A stretch of DNA of 63,688 bases, filler included, from Pseudomonadota bacterium (GTDB taxonomy: Bacteria > Bdellovibrionota_F > JAHFAK01 > JBDREC01), in NCBI GenBank assembly GCA_043820105.1. It is 6 parts of 6 records of this genome, joined end to end, with 100 filler letters (N's around TTAATTAATTAA, not from the genome) between each part and the next. Parts side by side here need not be neighbours in the genome. Positions count along the whole stretch, not along the records: positions 56,902 to 63,688 come from JBDREC010000100.1; 5 more parts are not named here. One strand, given 5' to 3'. Made by a program: the position numbers and the translations under genes. The number at the start of each line of letters is the position of its first letter. Position 1 is the first letter of the stretch. Below, piece after piece: positions 55,483 to 63,688 of the stretch. The notes beneath the pieces were generated by a model. The model was not told the origin of the DNA. It worked only from the letters and a program-made list of their open reading frames with translations, and made no database searches.

Positions 55483-55528
55483 TTGACAACCGTGTATTTT
55501 TGAAGTATCATTTCATATATGCACGGTT
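55483..55528 (+). promoter_or_regulatory. Sigma70 promoter predicting a leaderless mRNA
   Basis: TTGACA-N17-TATCAT-N7-ATG; inverted repeat AACCGTGTAT / ATGCACGGTT spans the promoter and start codon. Confidence 0.65.
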
Positions 55529-56661
55529 ACATAACAAGACACTTGGAAGAAAAAATTAAAAATCATCTACAGGACTATCCAGTTGTTGCTCTCCTGGGTC
55601 CAAGACAGGTAGGCAAATCCACAACAGCAAAAAAAATAATAAAAGATAACATTTATCTTGATCTAGAATTACCTAGTGACCTTAATAAATTAACAGACGC
55701 TGAAGCTTATTTTGAACAAAACAAAAACAAACTTATTTGCCTTGATGAAATTCAGCAAGCACCAAATATTTTTAAAATAATTAGAGCAATGGTTGATAAA
55801 ACAAATAATGCTGGTCAATTTTTGATATTAGGATCAGCTTCTAGAGATCTTATTAAACAAAGCTCTGAAACATTAGCTGGAAGAATTTCATATTTAGAAT
55901 TAACGCCTTTTAGCATATTAGAAATAAAAAAAGAAAACATTAGAAAGCATTGGAGTCGAGGTGGTTTGCCATTAAGTTTTTTAGCAAAATCCAAGGAATT
56001 AAGCTATAATTGGAGGATCAATTATATTAGATCGTTTTTAGAAAGAGACATCCCACAACTTGGATTCAATATACCAGCCAAAACCCTTCAAAGGTTTTGG
56101 ACAATGCTTGCCCATGTACATGCTCAAACATTAAATGCATCAAAACTAGCAGACTCAATGGGAGTAAGCTCACATACAATAAAATCATATATTGATATTC
56201 TAGAACAAACCTTTTTAGTGAGAACCCTTTTACCATATGAAAAAAACATAAAGAAAAGAATCATTAAATCTCCAAAAGTTTATTTAAGAGATAGTGGCTT
56301 ACTGCATGCTCTGCTTGGAATTGAAGATGAAAACGATTTATTTGGAAATCCTATCTATGGCGCTTCATGGGAAGGTTACTGCATAGAAAACATATTAACA
56401 AACTTAAATAAATATAATGCATACTTCTACAGAACATCACACGGAGCTGAAATTGATTTGATACTTGAAAAAGGTGAAAACAAAATCGCTATTGAATTCA
56501 AATCATCAAAATCACCAAAACTATCAAAAGGTTTTTATTCAAGCTCAAAAGAAATACAACCCACTGACTCTTATATTGTTGCTCCAGTGGATTCAAGTTA
56601 TCCGTATGGAAAAGGTATTACAGTTATAGGGCTTAAGGAATTGATACACAAATATCTTTAA
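55519..56661 (+). CDS. AAA_14/DUF4143 ATPase
   Basis: GPRQVGKST, LDEIQ, SETLAGR, KSPKVYLRDSG and EIDL...IAIEFK (C-terminal PD-(D/E)xK-like) motifs. Confidence 0.93.
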   Translation: MHGYITRHLEEKIKNHLQDYPVVALLGPRQVGKSTTAKKIIKDNIYLDLELPSDLNKLTDAEAYFEQNKNKLICLDEIQQAPNIFKIIRAMVDKTNNAGQFLILGSASRDLIKQSSETLAGRISYLELTPFSILEIKKENIRKHWSRGGLPLSFLAKSKELSYNWRINYIRSFLERDIPQLGFNIPAKTLQRFWTMLAHVHAQTLNASKLADSMGVSSHTIKSYIDILEQTFLVRTLLPYEKNIKKRIIKSPKVYLRDSGLLHALLGIEDENDLFGNPIYGASWEGYCIENILTNLNKYNAYFYRTSHGAEIDLILEKGENKIAIEFKSSKSPKLSKGFYSSSKEIQPTDSYIVAPVDSSYPYGKGITVIGLKELIHKYL

Positions 56662-56783: not shown

Positions 56784-56981
56784 GCAAAAGTTATGTTCAT
56801 GNNNNNNNNNNNNNNNNNNNNNNNNNNNNNNNNNNNNNNNNNNNNTTAATTAATTAANNNNNNNNNNNNNNNNNNNNNNNNNNNNNNNNNNNNNNNNNNN
56901 NATGTTCATTAAGATAGTGCATGATTTAATATTTTACCATTAACATCAGAATATTTCTTTCAAAATCCACTTGCTGTTTAT

Positions 56982-58658
56982 TCACTCTATCAGCGCCTCC
57001 GCCATGCTAATCATCGATTTACTATAAATCGGCCAACGGCCATCCGAAAGTTCGGATGTAAAATGAGGGCGGTTTTTTGATGAAAGTCTTTTTGTTTGAA
57101 GACATTGTGACCTTTCTTGTTGTTCTAAAAATAAAAAATTAAAGGGGGCGAAAAAATCAAAAGAAAAAAGCGATTTGTTGGCGATTTTGATGTTTTTAAA
57201 AAGCAGTTGCAGCACTTGCTTCTTGGTCAAATTATCTATCGTTTTCGCTCTTGGATTATACCCTTCAATGAATTCAGCAACACGGTTTTTATAGTTCTTA
57301 GAGTTCTCTCTTTCAATTGCTCTAACTTCTTGCAGAGCAATGCGTTTCTTTAAATCGTCTTCTTCGGTTTTTAGCGTTTCGCTTTTCTCTCTGTAAACTT
57401 CTTCGCTTAATAAATTATCCAAATACGCATCAGTTAATTTCGATTGTTTTTGAAGCACTATTTTAAGCTTTTCCTGTAGTTTTTCCAACTCATTTTTTGA
57501 GATTTGCTCAATAGCCGGGGATTCCAGTTCAGTCACTGTTGTCCATCGGCTCGATTTTAGTTTATTATTTTTGAGCAAAGTCTCTAAAAGTTCAGCTACC
57601 TGAGATTCGATAATATCTGCTTTTACACATTTATTTTTACATTGGATAAAGCTTGTCTGCGGGCCTCCGCATCTATAATATCTCTGCTTAAATCCTGTTC
57701 TATGATTAGAGATTGAAGAAATTCCTAAATATTTATGATTGCACTTTGTGCAATAAAGAACCCCGGAAAGAGGATACTCACTTGCCCTTCTTTTCCAAAC
57801 AATCTTTTTCTCTTTCAACTTTTCCTGAACAATCGCAAAATCTTCATCACTTATCAAGGGTTGATGCCTGCCCTGTGCAACAATAATCTTCTCCTGTGGA
57901 TTTTTAATATATCTAAAACCTCTTTTTGTTTTTTTGGTTTTATCATACCTTGATTTATTCCAAACAAGCTTACCTGTATAAATTCTATTCTTTAAAATAT
58001 CACTGATAAATTTAGTTCCCAGAATATTATCGTTACGAGTCCTATGGCCTTTTTTAGTCAGATATTCCGTAATACTTCTAATACTTCTGCCGGAAATATA
58101 CATTTTATAAATAGTTTTTACTAATTCAGCTTCTTTTTCGTTTACTTCCAAAAGCTTCTTTTCTTTGTTATAGGCATAACCGCAAGGAGCAAATCTTGCG
58201 CCCTGCCAATTACCTGCTTTTATTCCTTTAACCATTCCGGGGAAAACTCGTTCCGCTAATCTATTTCTTTCAAACTCTGCGAAACTGCCTAACTGTTGAA
58301 GCATTAATTTTCCAGCAGAAGTTGTAGAGTCAAAAGGTTCCGTAGCTGATTTAAAACCAACCTCATAAGAATATAACTTATCCATAAGATTAAGCAAATC
58401 CCTTAAGTTTCTGCTGAACCTGTCAATTTTATAAACTAAAACAAGATCAAATCTTTTTTGTCTAGCATCTTCAAGAAGTTTCTTTAAGGCAGGTCGTTCA
58501 AGCGAATAGCCGCTTATTCCATCATCAGAATAAACTTTATAAATTTCATATCCCTCACGCTCAGCAAAAGATTCTAGATATTCTCTTTGTACTTCTAAGG
58601 AATATCCTTCTTTAACTTGGTCTTCAGTTGAAACTCTTATGTAAATTGAAACTCTCAT
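56982..58658 (-). CDS. Large serine recombinase (resolvase + recombinase + Zn ribbon + coiled coil)
   Basis: YIRVSTEDQ catalytic Ser, DDGISG, RPAL, DRFSRN, AEFER, CTKC..YYRC..C. Confidence 0.95.
   Translation of the reverse strand: MRVSIYIRVSTEDQVKEGYSLEVQREYLESFAEREGYEIYKVYSDDGISGYSLERPALKKLLEDARQKRFDLVLVYKIDRFSRNLRDLLNLMDKLYSYEVGFKSATEPFDSTTSAGKLMLQQLGSFAEFERNRLAERVFPGMVKGIKAGNWQGARFAPCGYAYNKEKKLLEVNEKEAELVKTIYKMYISGRSIRSITEYLTKKGHRTRNDNILGTKFISDILKNRIYTGKLVWNKSRYDKTKKTKRGFRYIKNPQEKIIVAQGRHQPLISDEDFAIVQEKLKEKKIVWKRRASEYPLSGVLYCTKCNHKYLGISSISNHRTGFKQRYYRCGGPQTSFIQCKNKCVKADIIESQVAELLETLLKNNKLKSSRWTTVTELESPAIEQISKNELEKLQEKLKIVLQKQSKLTDAYLDNLLSEEVYREKSETLKTEEDDLKKRIALQEVRAIERENSKNYKNRVAEFIEGYNPRAKTIDNLTKKQVLQLLFKNIKIANKSLFSFDFFAPFNFLFLEQQERSQCLQTKRLSSKNRPHFTSELSDGRWPIYSKSMISMAEALIE
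57041..57197 (-). repeat. Left arm of a 157-bp inverted repeat (inside the recombinase 3' end)
   Basis: Reverse complement of 63393-63549 with one mismatch; outer end is CATCCGAA-AG-TTCGGATG. Confidence 0.95.
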
Positions 58659-58670
58659 ATTTTAAATTCA

Positions 58671-59174
58671 TTAATTCTGGCAACTAGTTGTAATCATAGA
58701 AGTAACAATATCGTTTAATAATCTTCCCCTAAAATTCACAAGCACAATATTTCGATGTTTATTAATTTCTGCAATGCATTCTTTAGAAATAAATCCTTCC
58801 TCCTGAGGAGCATAGATTATTAGAGCGGTATCATCTTTTTTTATTAATAGGATCTCACCCAAACAAGAAGATATGGTTTTCCAATGAGCAAGAAATAGAG
58901 AAAAATTTTCTGCTTTTCTTAATTCTCTAGTAGTAATTTGAGTTATATTACTTTCACTAAACAGTTTAGAATCAATCAAAAGACTACTTAAAGAAGAATA
59001 CGCATCATTTTCTGCAAATATAGCAATCTTTCTAGAAGCCAATCCCTTCCCCAATCTAAGTAATGCTGGCGATATTCCTTTAACCCATCGACATATTTCA
59101 ACAATGACAGCAAAAATTACAATGACTGTCGACACGTAACCAAGAAAATTCAAAATTTTCAAAACAGTATCCAT
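58671..59174 (-). CDS. Putative CBASS effector: N-terminal TM helix plus small Rossmann-like domain (possibly NARF-like)
   Basis: Start at MDTVLK behind GGAGG (167 aa); TM helix, then alternating beta/alpha segments (KIAIFA, LFLAHW, ALIIYAP, VLVNFRGRLLND); directly follows the CD-NTase. Confidence 0.6.
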   Translation of the reverse strand: MDTVLKILNFLGYVSTVIVIFAVIVEICRWVKGISPALLRLGKGLASRKIAIFAENDAYSSLSSLLIDSKLFSESNITQITTRELRKAENFSLFLAHWKTISSCLGEILLIKKDDTALIIYAPQEEGFISKECIAEINKHRNIVLVNFRGRLLNDIVTSMITTSCQN

Positions 59175-59196
59175 AATAACCTCCCAGTCAATAAAA

Positions 59197-60072
59197 TTAA
59201 GAAGCGAATTTATTTCCAAATAATTTTCTCCATAATTTAACAGATTCATCTGTATCTTCAGATTTTAAAGCTTCACTAGCGATATCTAAACTATTTTTTA
59301 TTTCACTCATAAAGCTTTTGAATTCATAAAAACTCCACCGTTTTGCGACATTAACAGATGGATATCCCGGATCATTAATGACTGGCACTTTGCCTAATTC
59401 TAAATACGATTTGTAAGTACTATAAATATTATAGAAAATATCTCTTATCGCAACGCCGTACGATTCGGGTTCTGATAAAATACATTGAGACAATAAACTT
59501 TCAATTATGTAAGAATTTGGCTTAGAACTTTCGCTAGACAATCTATCACGCCAAAACTTAATTATTTTAATTAAATGGATATAATATCCTTCTGTATTTT
59601 TATTCCTATCAGTCGAAAACTCAATCTGATTTTTAGGATGCGTAGCTACCCAAGTCTTAGCTTCTCGATCAGGAATCCATAACGGTCCAGAACGATTCGA
59701 GATTGGAGTAGAAGGAACAACATCCAAACTAAATCCGTTTTTATGAATCACATTAACTGATCTTCCCTGAGGTTTTATTTTAGAGTATTGATTCTGGAGG
59801 GAAGCCTGCAACCAAGCTAAAACAACCTCAGGAGCTGTATTATTTCGATCTAAGTCAATTATAAGAATAATATCAACATCCTTAATGTCATTAATCGCTG
59901 TATCTCTAGCATAAGAACCAGACAAAAAAGTCTCTGGATTGGCTTTTGAAATCTCATCATCTTTAGCTAAAAAATCTCTGATTTCTTCATGTGATTTTTT
60001 AGCTAATTTTACATCTTTATAATCCGGCTCGATATTTTTTAGTAATCCTTTAAAATATGTTGTCATTTCCAT
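59197..60072 (-). CDS. cGAS/DncV-like nucleotidyltransferase (CD-NTase, SMODS)
   Basis: LSGSYARDTAI..IKDVDII, QGRSV, LDVVP, LWIPD...W..THP, IIKFWR, SYIIE and WRKLFG.KF motifs; start at MEMTT behind GGAGG (291 aa). Confidence 0.9.
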   Translation of the reverse strand: MEMTTYFKGLLKNIEPDYKDVKLAKKSHEEIRDFLAKDDEISKANPETFLSGSYARDTAINDIKDVDIILIIDLDRNNTAPEVVLAWLQASLQNQYSKIKPQGRSVNVIHKNGFSLDVVPSTPISNRSGPLWIPDREAKTWVATHPKNQIEFSTDRNKNTEGYYIHLIKIIKFWRDRLSSESSKPNSYIIESLLSQCILSEPESYGVAIRDIFYNIYSTYKSYLELGKVPVINDPGYPSVNVAKRWSFYEFKSFMSEIKNSLDIASEALKSEDTDESVKLWRKLFGNKFAS

Positions 60073-60076
60073 TGTT

Positions 60077-61372
60077 TTAATCCTCCTTAATTTGAATATC
60101 TGTCGGCAGCACTGAACTCTCTGGAAATGCATCTTCATTAGGTTCAAGACCGTACTGCTTTCTTAATGCACCTTCAAAGTTGCCACAAGCTGGACATTCT
60201 TCATCTTTACAGAAATCCACCCCATACCAACGTAAAACAGTCATGGCTGTTGCTTCATCACTTAATGGCGGCCATGATGCATATTGTGTATTTGGCTCAG
60301 GTCTATTTATCCAAAAATACCAATTTGCTGAAAGATCTTTATCCAATATATGCAATGTTGAATCTTTATTTTTTATTAACTCCTGCAAAGCTAACTTTGA
60401 AGTCATGGTTCCAATAGGCTCAACATCTATAGATAATCCTGGTTCTACAGGCACATTTCTATCAGAATATGCTATATCACTAGCATTGGTATTAGATGAA
60501 ACCTCTTGATCTGTCTCTACATCAGGCATACCTAATAAAAAACAATGATAACAGGCTGTTTCCGTTGGATACACTCGCAGAATCTGTCCACCATATGCTC
60601 TACGGAAAGCTCCGGGAAAAAACATTGTCTTTTTTTGCTCCAAACCAATTCTATTGATTAAAAGTTTACTTTCTCGATTATCGGTAGCACATATAATTAA
60701 ATCAACACTTTTCGCTATTTCTAACAACTTAGTTCTATTTTGTTCATCTGCTTTTATAGGATAGGTAGATACTTTAACCTTAGGATTCTTTTCTAATAAT
60801 AAATCTCTAGCAACTACTACTTTTTTTCTCCCAATGTGAGACAACCCAGCCTGATGTCGACAAATATTACCAACTTCAAGCCTATCAGGATCTACTAAAT
60901 GAAAATTGCCAACCCCACATTTAACTAAATCAATTGAAATATGAATACCACCAGTCCCTAAGCCAAATATTAAGACCGAAGTATCTTTTAATAAATTTGT
61001 CTCAATAAAGCCTCGCTGTCTAGCGGAAAGTTCATGTCCTATATCAACAATACAGGTTTTTATTTCCTCCTTTTCCTCTGGGCCTTTATTGATATACGAT
61101 ACTACTTTATATTTATCACCAGAAGGAGCTATATAATCGTATTTTTTGGTATCATCAACCTGTATTAATTGCACTACCAGAAAATACTCACTGCTATTTG
61201 TTTCTCCAATCACCACAGCGCCATATACTTCCTTTGGGTTTTGGAATATCCCTAACGAGTTTAATGAATAAGCATCTCCTTCATCCCATTCAGAAAAAAT
61301 ACATGGCAAAACCTTATTATCATTCAGTTTCTTCCAATTAACATTTAAATACTCAGACGGTATTGTGATCAT
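60077..61372 (-). CDS. E1-like ThiF adenylation enzyme with a ~110-aa N-terminal extension
   Basis: GLGTGG, DPDRLEVGNICRH, CATDN, and Zn ligands CYHC and CPAC. Confidence 0.9.
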   Translation of the reverse strand: MITIPSEYLNVNWKKLNDNKVLPCIFSEWDEGDAYSLNSLGIFQNPKEVYGAVVIGETNSSEYFLVVQLIQVDDTKKYDYIAPSGDKYKVVSYINKGPEEKEEIKTCIVDIGHELSARQRGFIETNLLKDTSVLIFGLGTGGIHISIDLVKCGVGNFHLVDPDRLEVGNICRHQAGLSHIGRKKVVVARDLLLEKNPKVKVSTYPIKADEQNRTKLLEIAKSVDLIICATDNRESKLLINRIGLEQKKTMFFPGAFRRAYGGQILRVYPTETACYHCFLLGMPDVETDQEVSSNTNASDIAYSDRNVPVEPGLSIDVEPIGTMTSKLALQELIKNKDSTLHILDKDLSANWYFWINRPEPNTQYASWPPLSDEATAMTVLRWYGVDFCKDEECPACGNFEGALRKQYGLEPNEDAFPESSVLPTDIQIKED

Positions 61373-61548
61373 TGTCCAAACATATCCGCTTCTTCTGCAG
61401 TAATATTCAAGCCTGGTGCAGCAGAATCTGCAGATGAAACTGCTACTATTGTTTTTTTAGTCTTATCATAAACCAACTTATTACGTCCTGGTCGACGTGC
61501 AGCAATTGCTTGCATTGCTTCACGAATTTTTTCTTTTTGAGAATCCAT
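61369..61548 (-). CDS. 59-aa protein missing from the ORF track; candidate ubiquitin/Pup-like modifier
   Basis: MDSQKEKIREAMQAIAARRPGRNKLVYDKTKKTIVAVSSADSAAPGLNITAEEADMFGQ*; GGAGG..AGGA RBS, starts 7 nt after the E2 stop, and its TGA overlaps the E1 ATG (ATGA). Confidence 0.8.
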   Translation of the reverse strand: MDSQKEKIREAMQAIAARRPGRNKLVYDKTKKTIVAVSSADSAAPGLNITAEEADMFGQ

Positions 61549-61555
61549 ATTAATC

Positions 61556-62008
61556 CTATTCCTCCCTCATAGTCGCTACAAAATCATTTATAGTTTGTCC
61601 CGTAGCCAAGTGTTGCTCAAAAGCTTCAAACCATAACATTATTTTTAACATAACTTTATTCAAAGTAATACCACTATGCCATCGACTTTGTCTCCAATGA
61701 CAGATTTGGACTTCCCTGCTACTGCTAGGTTCTAATGTATGCATCTTATGAGATACACCATAACTAACTATTGATGTCCCATTATAGCCAATGAGTGGAT
61801 TTGGCTTATGCACATAAACAGAAGGACATTGATAAGGATAATTAGTCGGCAATCGACACCAAACCGTATAGCTCCTTCCACCACTAGAATTATAATCACC
61901 AAAAATATAATAAAAATTTCCTTGGGGGTAATACTTTACAAAGTATTGTGACATCCCATCTCTTTTTAAAATCTGATTTTCTAGATTTAATCTATCCAAC
62001 AATGTCAT
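61556..62008 (-). CDS. Stand-alone prokaryotic E2 (UBC-fold) protein
   Basis: LPTNYPYQCPSVYV (PxxYPxxxP), H...QICHW...W..GITL..V..KI.LW with a putative catalytic Cys; start at MTLLDRL behind AAGGAAG (150 aa). Confidence 0.8.
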   Translation of the reverse strand: MTLLDRLNLENQILKRDGMSQYFVKYYPQGNFYYIFGDYNSSGGRSYTVWCRLPTNYPYQCPSVYVHKPNPLIGYNGTSIVSYGVSHKMHTLEPSSSREVQICHWRQSRWHSGITLNKVMLKIMLWFEAFEQHLATGQTINDFVATMREE

Positions 62009-63248
62009 TGTCTCTTCCTTTAAGCTTATGATAACAATCAACAATCTGGTCTAACTTTAAAAGTGATAAACTGTTATTCTTCACTTCAAGCTCCGTTGAT
62101 TTTCCTATAGCTCTATCCAGCCAATCAACTTGTAATATTTTATGTGGCCACTTATCATCTATAGCAAATGCAATATATTGCTCATTTTTAACCGGCACAA
62201 CAAAAATATGTCCAAATGAGGTGTGATACACTTCTATATCTTTCGACAATATTTGTCTAAGATCTTTTATTGCATTTAATATCGTCCTTTCTGATATTAT
62301 TTTTAGAGAATTTCCCTCATTAGCAATAACTCTACCAAGTGGCTCTACTGGAATTTTAATATTATCTAGATTAAATAGCGAATAGGAGTGCAAATTTTGT
62401 TCCGACATTAAATTACTTTCAACTAAAATTTCTCTAATAGGACTCACTCCTTTTAAAACTATTAGGCACGCATCAACAGGACTAGTATCAGGAAAATTCT
62501 GATAAGCAAAAGGATTAATGCGAACTATACGTTCTTTTTTAGAAACGTTAACAAAAGAAACAATAAACTCCGCCATTTCATTAAAATTATTCCTATTAGC
62601 TAACCGCTTTATTCTACTGATATCACCAGAGCTAGGAGACTCTAGCCCAAGATTATGATGTGAATGCCAGTCACCAAAGTATCTTAGCCCCCATTTATCG
62701 CTTAATTCTGTACTAATTTTAACCAGATAATCTACATCTAGTCTAAAATGTGCATTATCCCTAATAGCTTTTGGTCCAGCTTTTGTAGCTAGGTAAATAA
62801 TAGGAATGTCACCCCAAATTCCAAATAAATCACCGCCAGTTTCAACTTTCCAGGACGAACTTTCTAAAGCTATAGCCTGCAACTCAGATTCATAAATAGC
62901 TAAAACAGTCGATGGGGAACCCCTTTTTACTTTACCTATTTCAAGTTCTTCAACAACTTTAACTGGATCAGATTGAGTTAAAACAAATTTAAATATTTTT
63001 GAGAAAACAGGGTGCTTTTCAATCCAGGTTTTAACATTCTTTGGCATTTCTAAATTATCCTGATTTAAAATATCTTTTGAAATATTAAGCAATTCAGATA
63101 TTCGCTGAATAAGATCTTGACTTGGTAAACGACGTCCTTTCTCAATATCAACCAAATAAGCAGCTGAAATTTCTAATTTTCTAGCAAACTCCCTTAAAGA
63201 AATTTTATTTTTTATTCGTTCTTTTTTTATTTTTTCACCAATCTGCAT
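61992..63248 (-). CDS. XRE-HTH / JAB (MPN+) metallopeptidase fusion with an extra C-terminal domain
   Basis: N-terminal XRE HTH (SLREFARKLEISAAYLVDIEKGRRLPS); JAB motif ETGG...GDWHSHHNLGLESPSSGD. Confidence 0.88.
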   Translation of the reverse strand: MQIGEKIKKERIKNKISLREFARKLEISAAYLVDIEKGRRLPSQDLIQRISELLNISKDILNQDNLEMPKNVKTWIEKHPVFSKIFKFVLTQSDPVKVVEELEIGKVKRGSPSTVLAIYESELQAIALESSSWKVETGGDLFGIWGDIPIIYLATKAGPKAIRDNAHFRLDVDYLVKISTELSDKWGLRYFGDWHSHHNLGLESPSSGDISRIKRLANRNNFNEMAEFIVSFVNVSKKERIVRINPFAYQNFPDTSPVDACLIVLKGVSPIREILVESNLMSEQNLHSYSLFNLDNIKIPVEPLGRVIANEGNSLKIISERTILNAIKDLRQILSKDIEVYHTSFGHIFVVPVKNEQYIAFAIDDKWPHKILQVDWLDRAIGKSTELEVKNNSLSLLKLDQIVDCYHKLKGRDNDIVG

Positions 63249-63392: not shown

Positions 63393-63549
63393 AAAAACAT
63401 CAAAATCGCCAACAAATCGCTTTTTTCTTTTGATTTTTTCGCCCCATTTAATTTTTTATTTTTAGAACAACAAGAAAGGTCACAATGTCTTCAAACAAAA
63501 AGACTTTCATCAAAAAACCGCCCTCATTTTACATCCGAACTTTCGGATG
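63393..63549 (+). repeat. Right arm of the 157-bp inverted repeat (duplicate of the recombinase 3' segment)
   Basis: Encodes KNIKIANKSLFSFDFFAPFNFLFLEQQERSQCLQTKRLSSKNRPHFTSELSD, identical to the recombinase C-terminal segment. Confidence 0.95.
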
Positions 63550-63688
63550 ACCTCTTGCTGAGGCTCTACAATGTGCTTTTTTCTTACTTTTCTACCTTGA
63601 ATTGACTTAATGATGCACCGCCCCGCCGTCGCTCCCTGAACGGTCGCTTTGGCGGGGCTCCGTGAGTGATGTTGCACCGTTCGCCTCA

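Follow-up and report, generated by a model that had tools for sequence, protein, structure and literature searches.

A small conserved protein encoded between separate E2 and E1 genes of a split-Cap2 CBASS operon is a candidate substrate of the operon's conjugation enzymes

The window analyzed here, a stretch of 63,688 nucleotides from a Pseudomonadota bacterium (assembly GCA_043820105.1), carries an immunity operon with a small gene between its E2 and E1 genes. The operon is a split-Cap2, type II-like cyclic-oligonucleotide-based antiphage signaling system (CBASS), composed of a helix-turn-helix (HTH)-JAB protein, an E2, the small protein, an E1, a nucleotidyltransferase (CD-NTase) of the cGAS/DncV-like kind and an effector, and it lies alone on the 6,787-base contig JBDREC010000100.1. 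The genes are arranged on the minus strand in the order HTH-JAB fusion, E2-like protein, small open reading frame (ORF), E1, CD-NTase, one-transmembrane (1TM) effector and large serine recombinase. The HTH-JAB fusion of 418 residues (61992-63248) has an HTH_3 domain at residues 7-60 (9.7e-13) and a JAB domain at about residues 116-250 (PADLOC JAB, 5.8e-10). The E2-like protein has 150 residues when started from the ATG at 62008 (61556-62008; the listed ORF starts at the TTG at 62044), and its stop codon at 61558-61556 lies 7 nucleotides before the start of the small gene. The small gene (61369-61548; ATG at 61548-61546, stop codon TGA at 61371-61369) encodes 59 residues and is followed by the E1 gene (431 residues, 60077-61372), the product of which has a β-rich N-terminal domain of about residues 1-115 and a ThiF adenylation domain (ThiF family, 1.6e-33). 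The CD-NTase of the SMODS family (4.9e-28; PADLOC cyclase, 1.1e-84) has 291 residues from the ATG at 60072 (59197-60072), and the 1TM effector (58671-59249) matches the PADLOC model PDLC00664 (1.5e-60).

The 59-residue ORF is confirmed as a real operon gene that is tightly coupled to E1. A sequence-only reading of the window had described an ORF of this length at 61369-61548 with the end ...ADMFGQ, and had taken it for a genuine gene by its ribosome-binding site, its place in the E2-E1 gap and its ATGA overlap with E1; the sequence, the homologues and the synteny bear this description out. Two Shine-Dalgarno-like purine strings precede the ATG (61554-61566; GGGAGG at 61566-61561 and AGGA at 61557-61554), inside or just past the 3' end of the E2 gene, and the stop codon of the small gene overlaps the E1 start codon at 61369-61372. 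A word-seeded search yielded 45 homologous proteins of 47-102 residues and 69-100% identity, the window copy included, and a profile search reading every protein yielded 117 cluster representatives at E <= 0.001, 41 of them at E <= 1e-10. The set of loci used for the comparisons comprises 81 members, of which 80 were kept from 95 relatives in a metagenome scan seeded with the small protein and one (L001) came from a genome scan seeded with E1. In the loci with sufficient flanking sequence, the small gene has upstream of it an E2 gene in 76/76 cases and a JAB gene in 60/61, and downstream of it an E1 gene in 75/75 and a CD-NTase gene in 45/45. The earlier reading had set beforehand that the ORF should be kept in syntenic loci, and it is kept in all of these. 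As 80 of the 81 loci were reached through the small protein itself, a control search with E1 only was run over 401 genomes of the phylum of L001. Full-length E1 orthologues were present in three of them, one being the L001 genome, and in each of the three the small ORF lies in the gap from E2 to E1.

Comparisons of the individual genes showed that the small protein is the most conserved member of the operon. It has the highest identity to the window copy in all 61 loci with at least three measurable genes, and the median identities to the window copies are 70% for the small protein, 57% for the CD-NTase, 55% for E2, 53% for E1 and 48% for JAB. Seventeen residues (M12, Q13, A16, R18, L25, Y27, D28, T33, I34, A36, L47, I49, E52, A54, D55, M56 and F57) are invariant in the alignment of the 45 sequences, and the hairpin lysines K24 and K29 are nearly so. 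In the 67 distinct nucleotide versions, each invariant residue is encoded by 2-6 different synonymous codons, reaching six for L25 and L47 and four for A36 and A54. Since the synonymous codons are all in use, selection acts on the protein rather than on an RNA signal or a ribosome-binding site for E1. Nucleotide conservation of the end motif driven by such a site was dropped as an explanation, as 2-4 synonymous codons occur at every one of E52, D53, A54, D55 and F57.

The small protein consists of a predicted helix at residues 2-17, a β-hairpin within 23-38, a variable linker at 39-45 that is free in sequence and fixed in length, the invariant segment GLNITAEEADMF at 46-57, and an unconstrained tail, GQ in the window copy. 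The AlphaFold2 model places the hairpin strands at residues 23-28 and 33-38 and adds a short helix at 51-58, at low confidence (mean predicted local distance difference test score, pLDDT, of 69). In the model of a natural fusion of 488 residues, the small part (residues 1-59) has a pLDDT of 31-62. These low-confidence models of one long helix, a hairpin and a short helix are consistent with a fold other than the β-grasp, and to this extent the expectation that the protein is not a standard β-grasp modifier holds. Family searches with the small protein against Pfam, PADLOC and PHROGs gave no match, a Foldseek comparison of its model with the PDB was empty at E <= 0.001, and the ESM Atlas gave no usable match. 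A sequence profile search of the PDB returned chance-level matches to armadillo repeats and no CD-NTase chain, so that any similarity of the small protein to the tails of solved cyclases is undetectable. Profile-profile comparison with E1 and E2 gave a single match, the E1 part of a fused row. Across the 117 representatives the common core RRPGxxKLVYDKxxRTIV is followed by diverse C-termini. The possibility that the small protein is a split-off piece of the Cap2 linker was also considered and dropped, the 117 representatives and four longer forms including no E2-small or E2-small-E1 fusion.

The enzymes around the small gene look active by their intact catalytic motifs. In E1, the nucleotide-binding and Mg motifs, with GLGTGG, D161, R164 and D231, and two CxxC pairs (C274/C277 and C393/C396) are invariant in 33 sequences; no cysteine outside these pairs is invariant, C228 being nearly so. 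The region of the crossover loop in the window E1 (residues 278-388) has no cysteine and an invariant Ser293, which recalls the cysteine-less Bub E1. PADLOC E1-E2 models match E1 across their E1 part only. Foldseek aligned the E1 model over 430 columns with Cap2 and over 482-604 with Atg7 chains, and MccB and PaaA are among the sequence and fold matches. The fold of the E1 N-terminal domain is assigned from the long Foldseek alignments, because VIA covered the adenylation domain only. The E2-like protein has no match in Pfam or PADLOC, a weak match to an E2 motif (E 0.54) and Atlas neighbour clusters that carry PF26395 (E2-CBASS) on 15-35% of their members; its Cys103, in a QICHW motif, is invariant in 42 sequences. 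The JAB protein has the metal motif E...HSH...PSSGD (PSxxD) and matches the PADLOC JAB models. Its N-terminal HTH domain also matches a capH-like PADLOC model (1.2e-07) in a layout kept in related loci, and its C-terminal ~170 residues gave no family match. Another E1-like gene (28% identity) stands beside a JAB-like gene (34%) in the phylum of L001 (L099, 874-2135), apparently belonging to a separate conjugation system.

The CD-NTase ends with ...LWRKLFGNKFAS, only two residues beyond its core motif (LFGNKF). In the 120 best homologues (53-100% identity, 290-317 residues), 119 have a recognizable LFGxxF motif, and the tails of these 119 are 1-8 residues long and end with E (37), S (29), K (15), D (12), N (6), Q (5), G (3), A (1) or other residues. 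The solved relatives have the motif LWRxLFGxxF, beyond which the tails of the type II enzymes, which are known Cap2 substrates, extend for 38 residues in Bacillus cereus CdnD (9sa4) and 30 residues in Enterobacter cloacae CdnD (7ljl, 7to3_C). The type III cyclases without Cap2 (6p80, 6p8u) stop 2-3 residues past the motif, as the window CD-NTase does. Of the solved cyclases, B. cereus CdnD, a type II enzyme, is closest to the window CD-NTase, its system being assigned from the available text of the 2026 BcCdnD paper. The accessible part of Jenson 2023 reports that the last residue is Gly or Ala in 1,583 cyclases of Cap2/Cap3 operons, and that replacement of the terminal Gly by Ser, Val, Arg or Trp abolishes conjugation of the cyclase. 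The type II cyclase is described with an extended disordered tail, the conserved end of which is bound in the Cap2 adenylation site (Ledvina 2022 preprint, available text). Judged from these sequences, the CD-NTase of the operon has lost the Cap2-type conjugation tail. The proposal that the cascade is without its usual substrate is thus upheld, and no other result alters the view of the operon as much as the tail-less cyclase.

The window copy of the small protein ends with ...AEEADMFGQ, and the constant end across its relatives is ...GLNI[TS]AE[ED]ADMF. In the 61 loci with an unfused gene, the tail past F57 has 0 (1 locus), 1 (11), 2 (14), 3 (19), 4 (1), 6 (1), 7 (2) or 8 (12) residues, with sequences such as I, K, VQ, YLR and MNYDYNSY, or none. 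The 54 distinct unfused proteins have I (11), V (7), S (5), A (5), M (4), G (4) or other residues at position 58, and only one of them has Gly as its last residue. The tail MNYDYNSY overlies ATGATTACAATTCC, the start of E1. The tail letters thus derive from the beginning of E1 in a different frame, and the end under conservation is ...ADMF rather than FG. The sequence-only reading had proposed that JAB strips a capping Gln and exposes Gly58 for adenylation by E1, as in Atg8 or Pup. The penultimate Gly with the capping Gln holds for the window copy alone, which ends with FGQ, and residue 58 is G or A in 13/15 distinct proteins of the main fused clade. However, neither is a general feature, with Gly58 in only 4/54 unfused proteins and tails dictated by another frame, and the conserved terminal FG expected near homologous E2/E1 pairs was not found; a terminal Gly without conservation is one of the two outcomes that the same reading had named as speaking against its proposal. 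The C-terminal Gly or Gly-Gly of the β-grasp modifiers is likewise absent. The analogy with Pup fails, since none of the 45 homologues ends with GGQ or GGE and the eight proteins scanned with Pfam include no Pup ligase or Dop family member, the genome being covered here by the 6.8-kb contig. The Gly58 model in its exact form is largely refuted by this lack of conservation and is very improbable. As a separate observation, the cyclase tail starts with Gly (FG, FGG, FGQ, FGSG, FGR) in the fused clade (L061, L065, L070, L073, L079), in which residue 58 of the small protein is G or A; the cyclase tail start and residue 58 are each variable in the unfused clade.

The small protein is in frame with E1, with no stop codon between them, in 20/81 loci. 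The position of the E1 Met has no start codon in several of these fusions (GTC in L061, GTT in L070 and ATA in L025). The linkers have only 1-8 residues, and at least five junction types are present (DMF-[GA]-V..., DMF-LCE-I..., DMF-SEG-L..., DMF-IASHGVGG-M... and DMF-GLF-V...), and these differences between the junctions suggest that the fusion originated repeatedly. Across the 117 representatives and the four longer forms, no partner other than E1 recurs in fusions. On the Bradyrhizobium barranii plasmid NZ_CP088281.1, the fused form is a single coding sequence of 483 residues annotated as "ThiF family adenylyltransferase". This locus (L126, 249799-256169), from a cultured organism, consists of an MPN/JAB (Mov34/MPN) gene, an E2-like gene, the small-E1 fusion and a frameshifted CD-NTase gene ending with ...LFGSTFGA, together with genes for a dsDNA-nuclease-domain protein and a TIR protein; an IS630 transposase adjoins it.

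These fusions bear on the main rival explanation, in which the small protein would be a non-covalent, detachable N-terminal accessory domain of the Atg7/Cap2-like E1 that uses its hairpin and acidic ADMF end to recruit or position the separate E2, or else the CD-NTase without a tail, and is never adenylated. The short linkers, the several junction types, the annotation of the fused form as one ThiF protein and the exclusive partnership with E1 are all as expected of such a domain. In fold, the linker domain of Cap2 agrees with the N-terminal domain of Atg7, a recruiter of separate E2s, and the E2 of Cap2 is attached at the N-terminus of the linker (Ledvina 2022, available text). In gene order and in fusion, the small protein occupies this E2-to-linker position, and the absence of a conserved Gly/Ala end and the predicted helical structure of the end motif also favor an accessory role. 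However, this explanation leaves apparently active E1, E2 and JAB enzymes with no identified substrate, the CD-NTase being tail-less, and it does not account for the top conservation of the small protein or for the exact stop of that conservation at F57. AlphaFold2 gave no confident docking of the small part on E1 in the natural fusion, where residues 1-59 have the low scores given above. Complex predictions of E1, E2, ATP and the small protein, the last being the partner scored, gave 0.64, 0.65 and 0.69 in three runs, 0.00 and 0.00 in the partner-replaced controls and 0.78 in the E1-replaced control; the scores are counted neither for nor against binding. An accessory domain is a tentative alternative, less probable than a substrate role.

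The small protein is an obligate fourth component of the split-Cap2 CBASS, and it is most likely, at a rough probability of 0.45, the substrate of E1, E2 and JAB, a non-β-grasp modifier replacing the lost tail of the CD-NTase. This substrate role is favored because seemingly active E1, E2 and JAB enzymes without their usual substrate have an extremely conserved small neighbor. In the proposed mechanism, the module of the N-terminal helix and the hairpin would dock on the enzymes. JAB would then trim whatever follows the invariant ...AE[ED]ADMF, which may be 0-8 junk residues or, in the fusions, the entire E1. The exposed carboxylate would be adenylated by E1, and the small protein could be passed to Cys103 of E2 and further to an acceptor lysine, either of the CD-NTase or of some protein of phage or host, in a reaction that JAB would reverse. 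An invariant end that is followed by an unconstrained tail or by E1 in frame fits a peptidase that reads only the upstream side. Precedents for such a cut are given in the available texts: Cap3 cuts a cGAS-GFP fusion exactly behind the last cGAS residue (Ledvina 2022 preprint), the modifier BubA is made in one polypeptide with the E2 BubB, from which a JAB domain releases it (Ye et al. 2024 preprint), and ubiquitin-like domains were noted at the N-terminus of E1-like proteins (Iyer 2006).

Several points weigh against the substrate role. A C-terminal Phe makes an unusual E1 substrate, as bulky replacements of the terminal Gly abolish conjugation by Cap2 (Jenson 2023, available text), and the fusion to the N-terminus of E1 fits a permanent accessory domain equally well. 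AlphaFold2 makes residues 51-58 helical rather than an extended tail, although the pLDDT there is only 55-58. Part of the invariance of AE[ED]ADM in loci L002-L081 stems from the search itself, since I[TS]AE[ED]ADM was contained in one of the two patterns of the metagenome scan; the invariance is independently backed by the word-seeded set of 45 proteins and its alignment. Position 57 is D, C or I in more distant relatives (DADMD, DADMC, DADMI), and many members of the wider family stop before the ADMF motif. Stand-alone phage homologues without a detectable E1 indicate that the fold, and even the end motif, may work without E1. Finally, the anatomy and the comparative pattern are what the analysis shows, and cleavage, adenylation, conjugation and the target are all inferred from them.

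The phage homologues lead to another explanation, in which the small protein would be an acceptor, bait or regulator that mimics a small phage protein, serving as a lysine acceptor, a sensor or an inhibitory subunit with which the phage copies interfere. Stand-alone homologues were found on phage contigs that gave no tblastn match to E1, E2, JAB or CD-NTase. One (L082, 5860-6180) has 68% identity over the full length and the end DADRF, in which R replaces the otherwise invariant M56. Another (L083, 5980-6378) matches residues 4-39 at 72% identity and then continues into a C-terminus that is Cys-rich and unrelated, and a DNA polymerase gene adjoins it. Other viral homologues (L084, L085, L087 and L088, near 5000) have 42-54% identity and stand among structural or replication genes, one of them ending with ...EADFI. 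The common core of the wider family, shared by members with diverse C-termini, and the nearly invariant lysines K24 and K29 of the hairpin would suit such a role. However, if the small protein were an acceptor only, the donor would still be missing. The neighbors of the phage copies give no functional hint, with PHROGs and Pfam empty, and a tblastn search of 50,697 named phage genomes gave no match. An acceptor or regulator is unlikely, and less probable than an accessory domain. The homologues on phage contigs could be decoys or ancestors. A more far-reaching scenario built on the substrate role, and more doubtful than that role itself, is that a CBASS lineage moved the conjugation tail from the cyclase to a separate non-β-grasp protein of 57 residues with an acidic-Met-Phe end, which the HTH-JAB would free from a surplus tail or from E1 and which an Atg7-like E1 would activate together with a separately encoded E2, the altered phage copies (M56R or the N-terminal module alone) acting as decoys.

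The operon resembles the type II CBASS with Cap2 and Cap3 in its SMODS CD-NTase, its effector, its ThiF-type E1 with an N-terminal domain, its E2-like protein with a putative catalytic Cys and the JAB protein. In contrast, its E2 (150 residues) and E1 (431 residues) are encoded by separate genes that flank the conserved small gene, whereas Cap2 is one polypeptide; its JAB has an N-terminal HTH and a C-terminal extension; and its CD-NTase is without the tail of 30-38 residues and the Gly/Ala end of a Cap2 substrate. Encoded beside or fused to E1, E2 or JAB, the small protein is placed like the β-grasp modifiers (Ub, ThiS, MoaD, BilA and BubA). As far as the available text of the Ye et al. 2024 preprint goes, the Bub pathway is similar in a modifier fused to a pathway enzyme, with a putative release by the JAB of the operon here, and in an E1 without a catalytic Cys, the present E1 having no invariant Cys outside its two CxxC pairs. 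However, according to the same text, BubA is a β-grasp ubiquitin-like protein with a conserved Gly end, and the small protein is neither, its fold being taken from a low-confidence model. Bub also uses oxyesters, whereas the E2 here keeps an invariant Cys, and the Bub operons described there have no CD-NTase.

The autophagy pathway offers a further comparison, in which Atg8 precursors are trimmed to an aromatic-Gly end. Unlike the Atg7, Atg3/Atg10 and Atg8/Atg12 system, the operon has neither a β-grasp modifier, by the low-confidence model, nor a conserved Gly, as the end of the small protein is acidic and then Met-Phe. The pairing of a ThiF-family enzyme with a small peptide that is not a β-grasp, here with a putative substrate role, is shared with MccB/MccA and PaaA. 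MccB and PaaA are enzymes for the biosynthesis of ribosomally synthesized and post-translationally modified peptides, without E2 or JAB and with a peptide-clamp N-terminal domain. The full E1 model differs from them in aligning over more columns with Cap2 and Atg7.

The present architecture is not among the five types of E1/JAB operons in the available text of Iyer 2006. The literature searches, including the available portions of Ledvina 2022, Jenson 2023, Ye 2024, PMC11601603, Iyer 2006, the 2026 BcCdnD paper and Hobbs and Kranzusch 2026, yielded no account of a CBASS in which a small gene separates the E2 gene from the E1 gene; the supplementary operon tables of Ledvina 2022 and Jenson 2023 may list split E2/E1 genes. 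The small protein stands a real chance of being a modifier of a new type. For ubiquitin-like conjugation in bacterial immunity, the type II CBASS serves as the model, with the rule that the Gly/Ala tail of the cyclase itself is conjugated. Were the small protein the substrate, the chemistry of E1 and E2 would act on a non-β-grasp protein with a non-glycine end, and the operon would be a compact and tractable system for studying the effect of conjugation on CD-NTase signaling. If it is an adaptor, it would show how a split Cap2 stays together, in parallel to the recruitment of Atg3/Atg10 by Atg7. On either reading, the phage-borne homologues are candidate anti-CBASS factors.

The surroundings of the operon show some further features. 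A run of N flanked by TTAATTAATTAA at 56802-56901 indicates that the window is made of separate contigs joined, and the genes to the left of 56802, such as that of a DUF4143/AAA_14 ATPase (55519-56661), have no physical linkage to the operon. The effector is exchanged between otherwise syntenic operons, being a soluble protein of 245 residues in L001 (8203-8940) and the 1TM protein in the window, and only 11/81 loci have a match spanning more than 70% of the 1TM effector. An inverted repeat of 169 nucleotides with 96% complementarity (57029-57197 and 63393-63561) encloses the CBASS operon and most of the gene of the large serine recombinase (56982-58658, minus strand). Each arm lies 127 nucleotides from a contig end, and one arm is located within the 3' end of the recombinase gene. 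The repeat could bound an invertible segment, mark the ends of an element or be an effect of the assembly.

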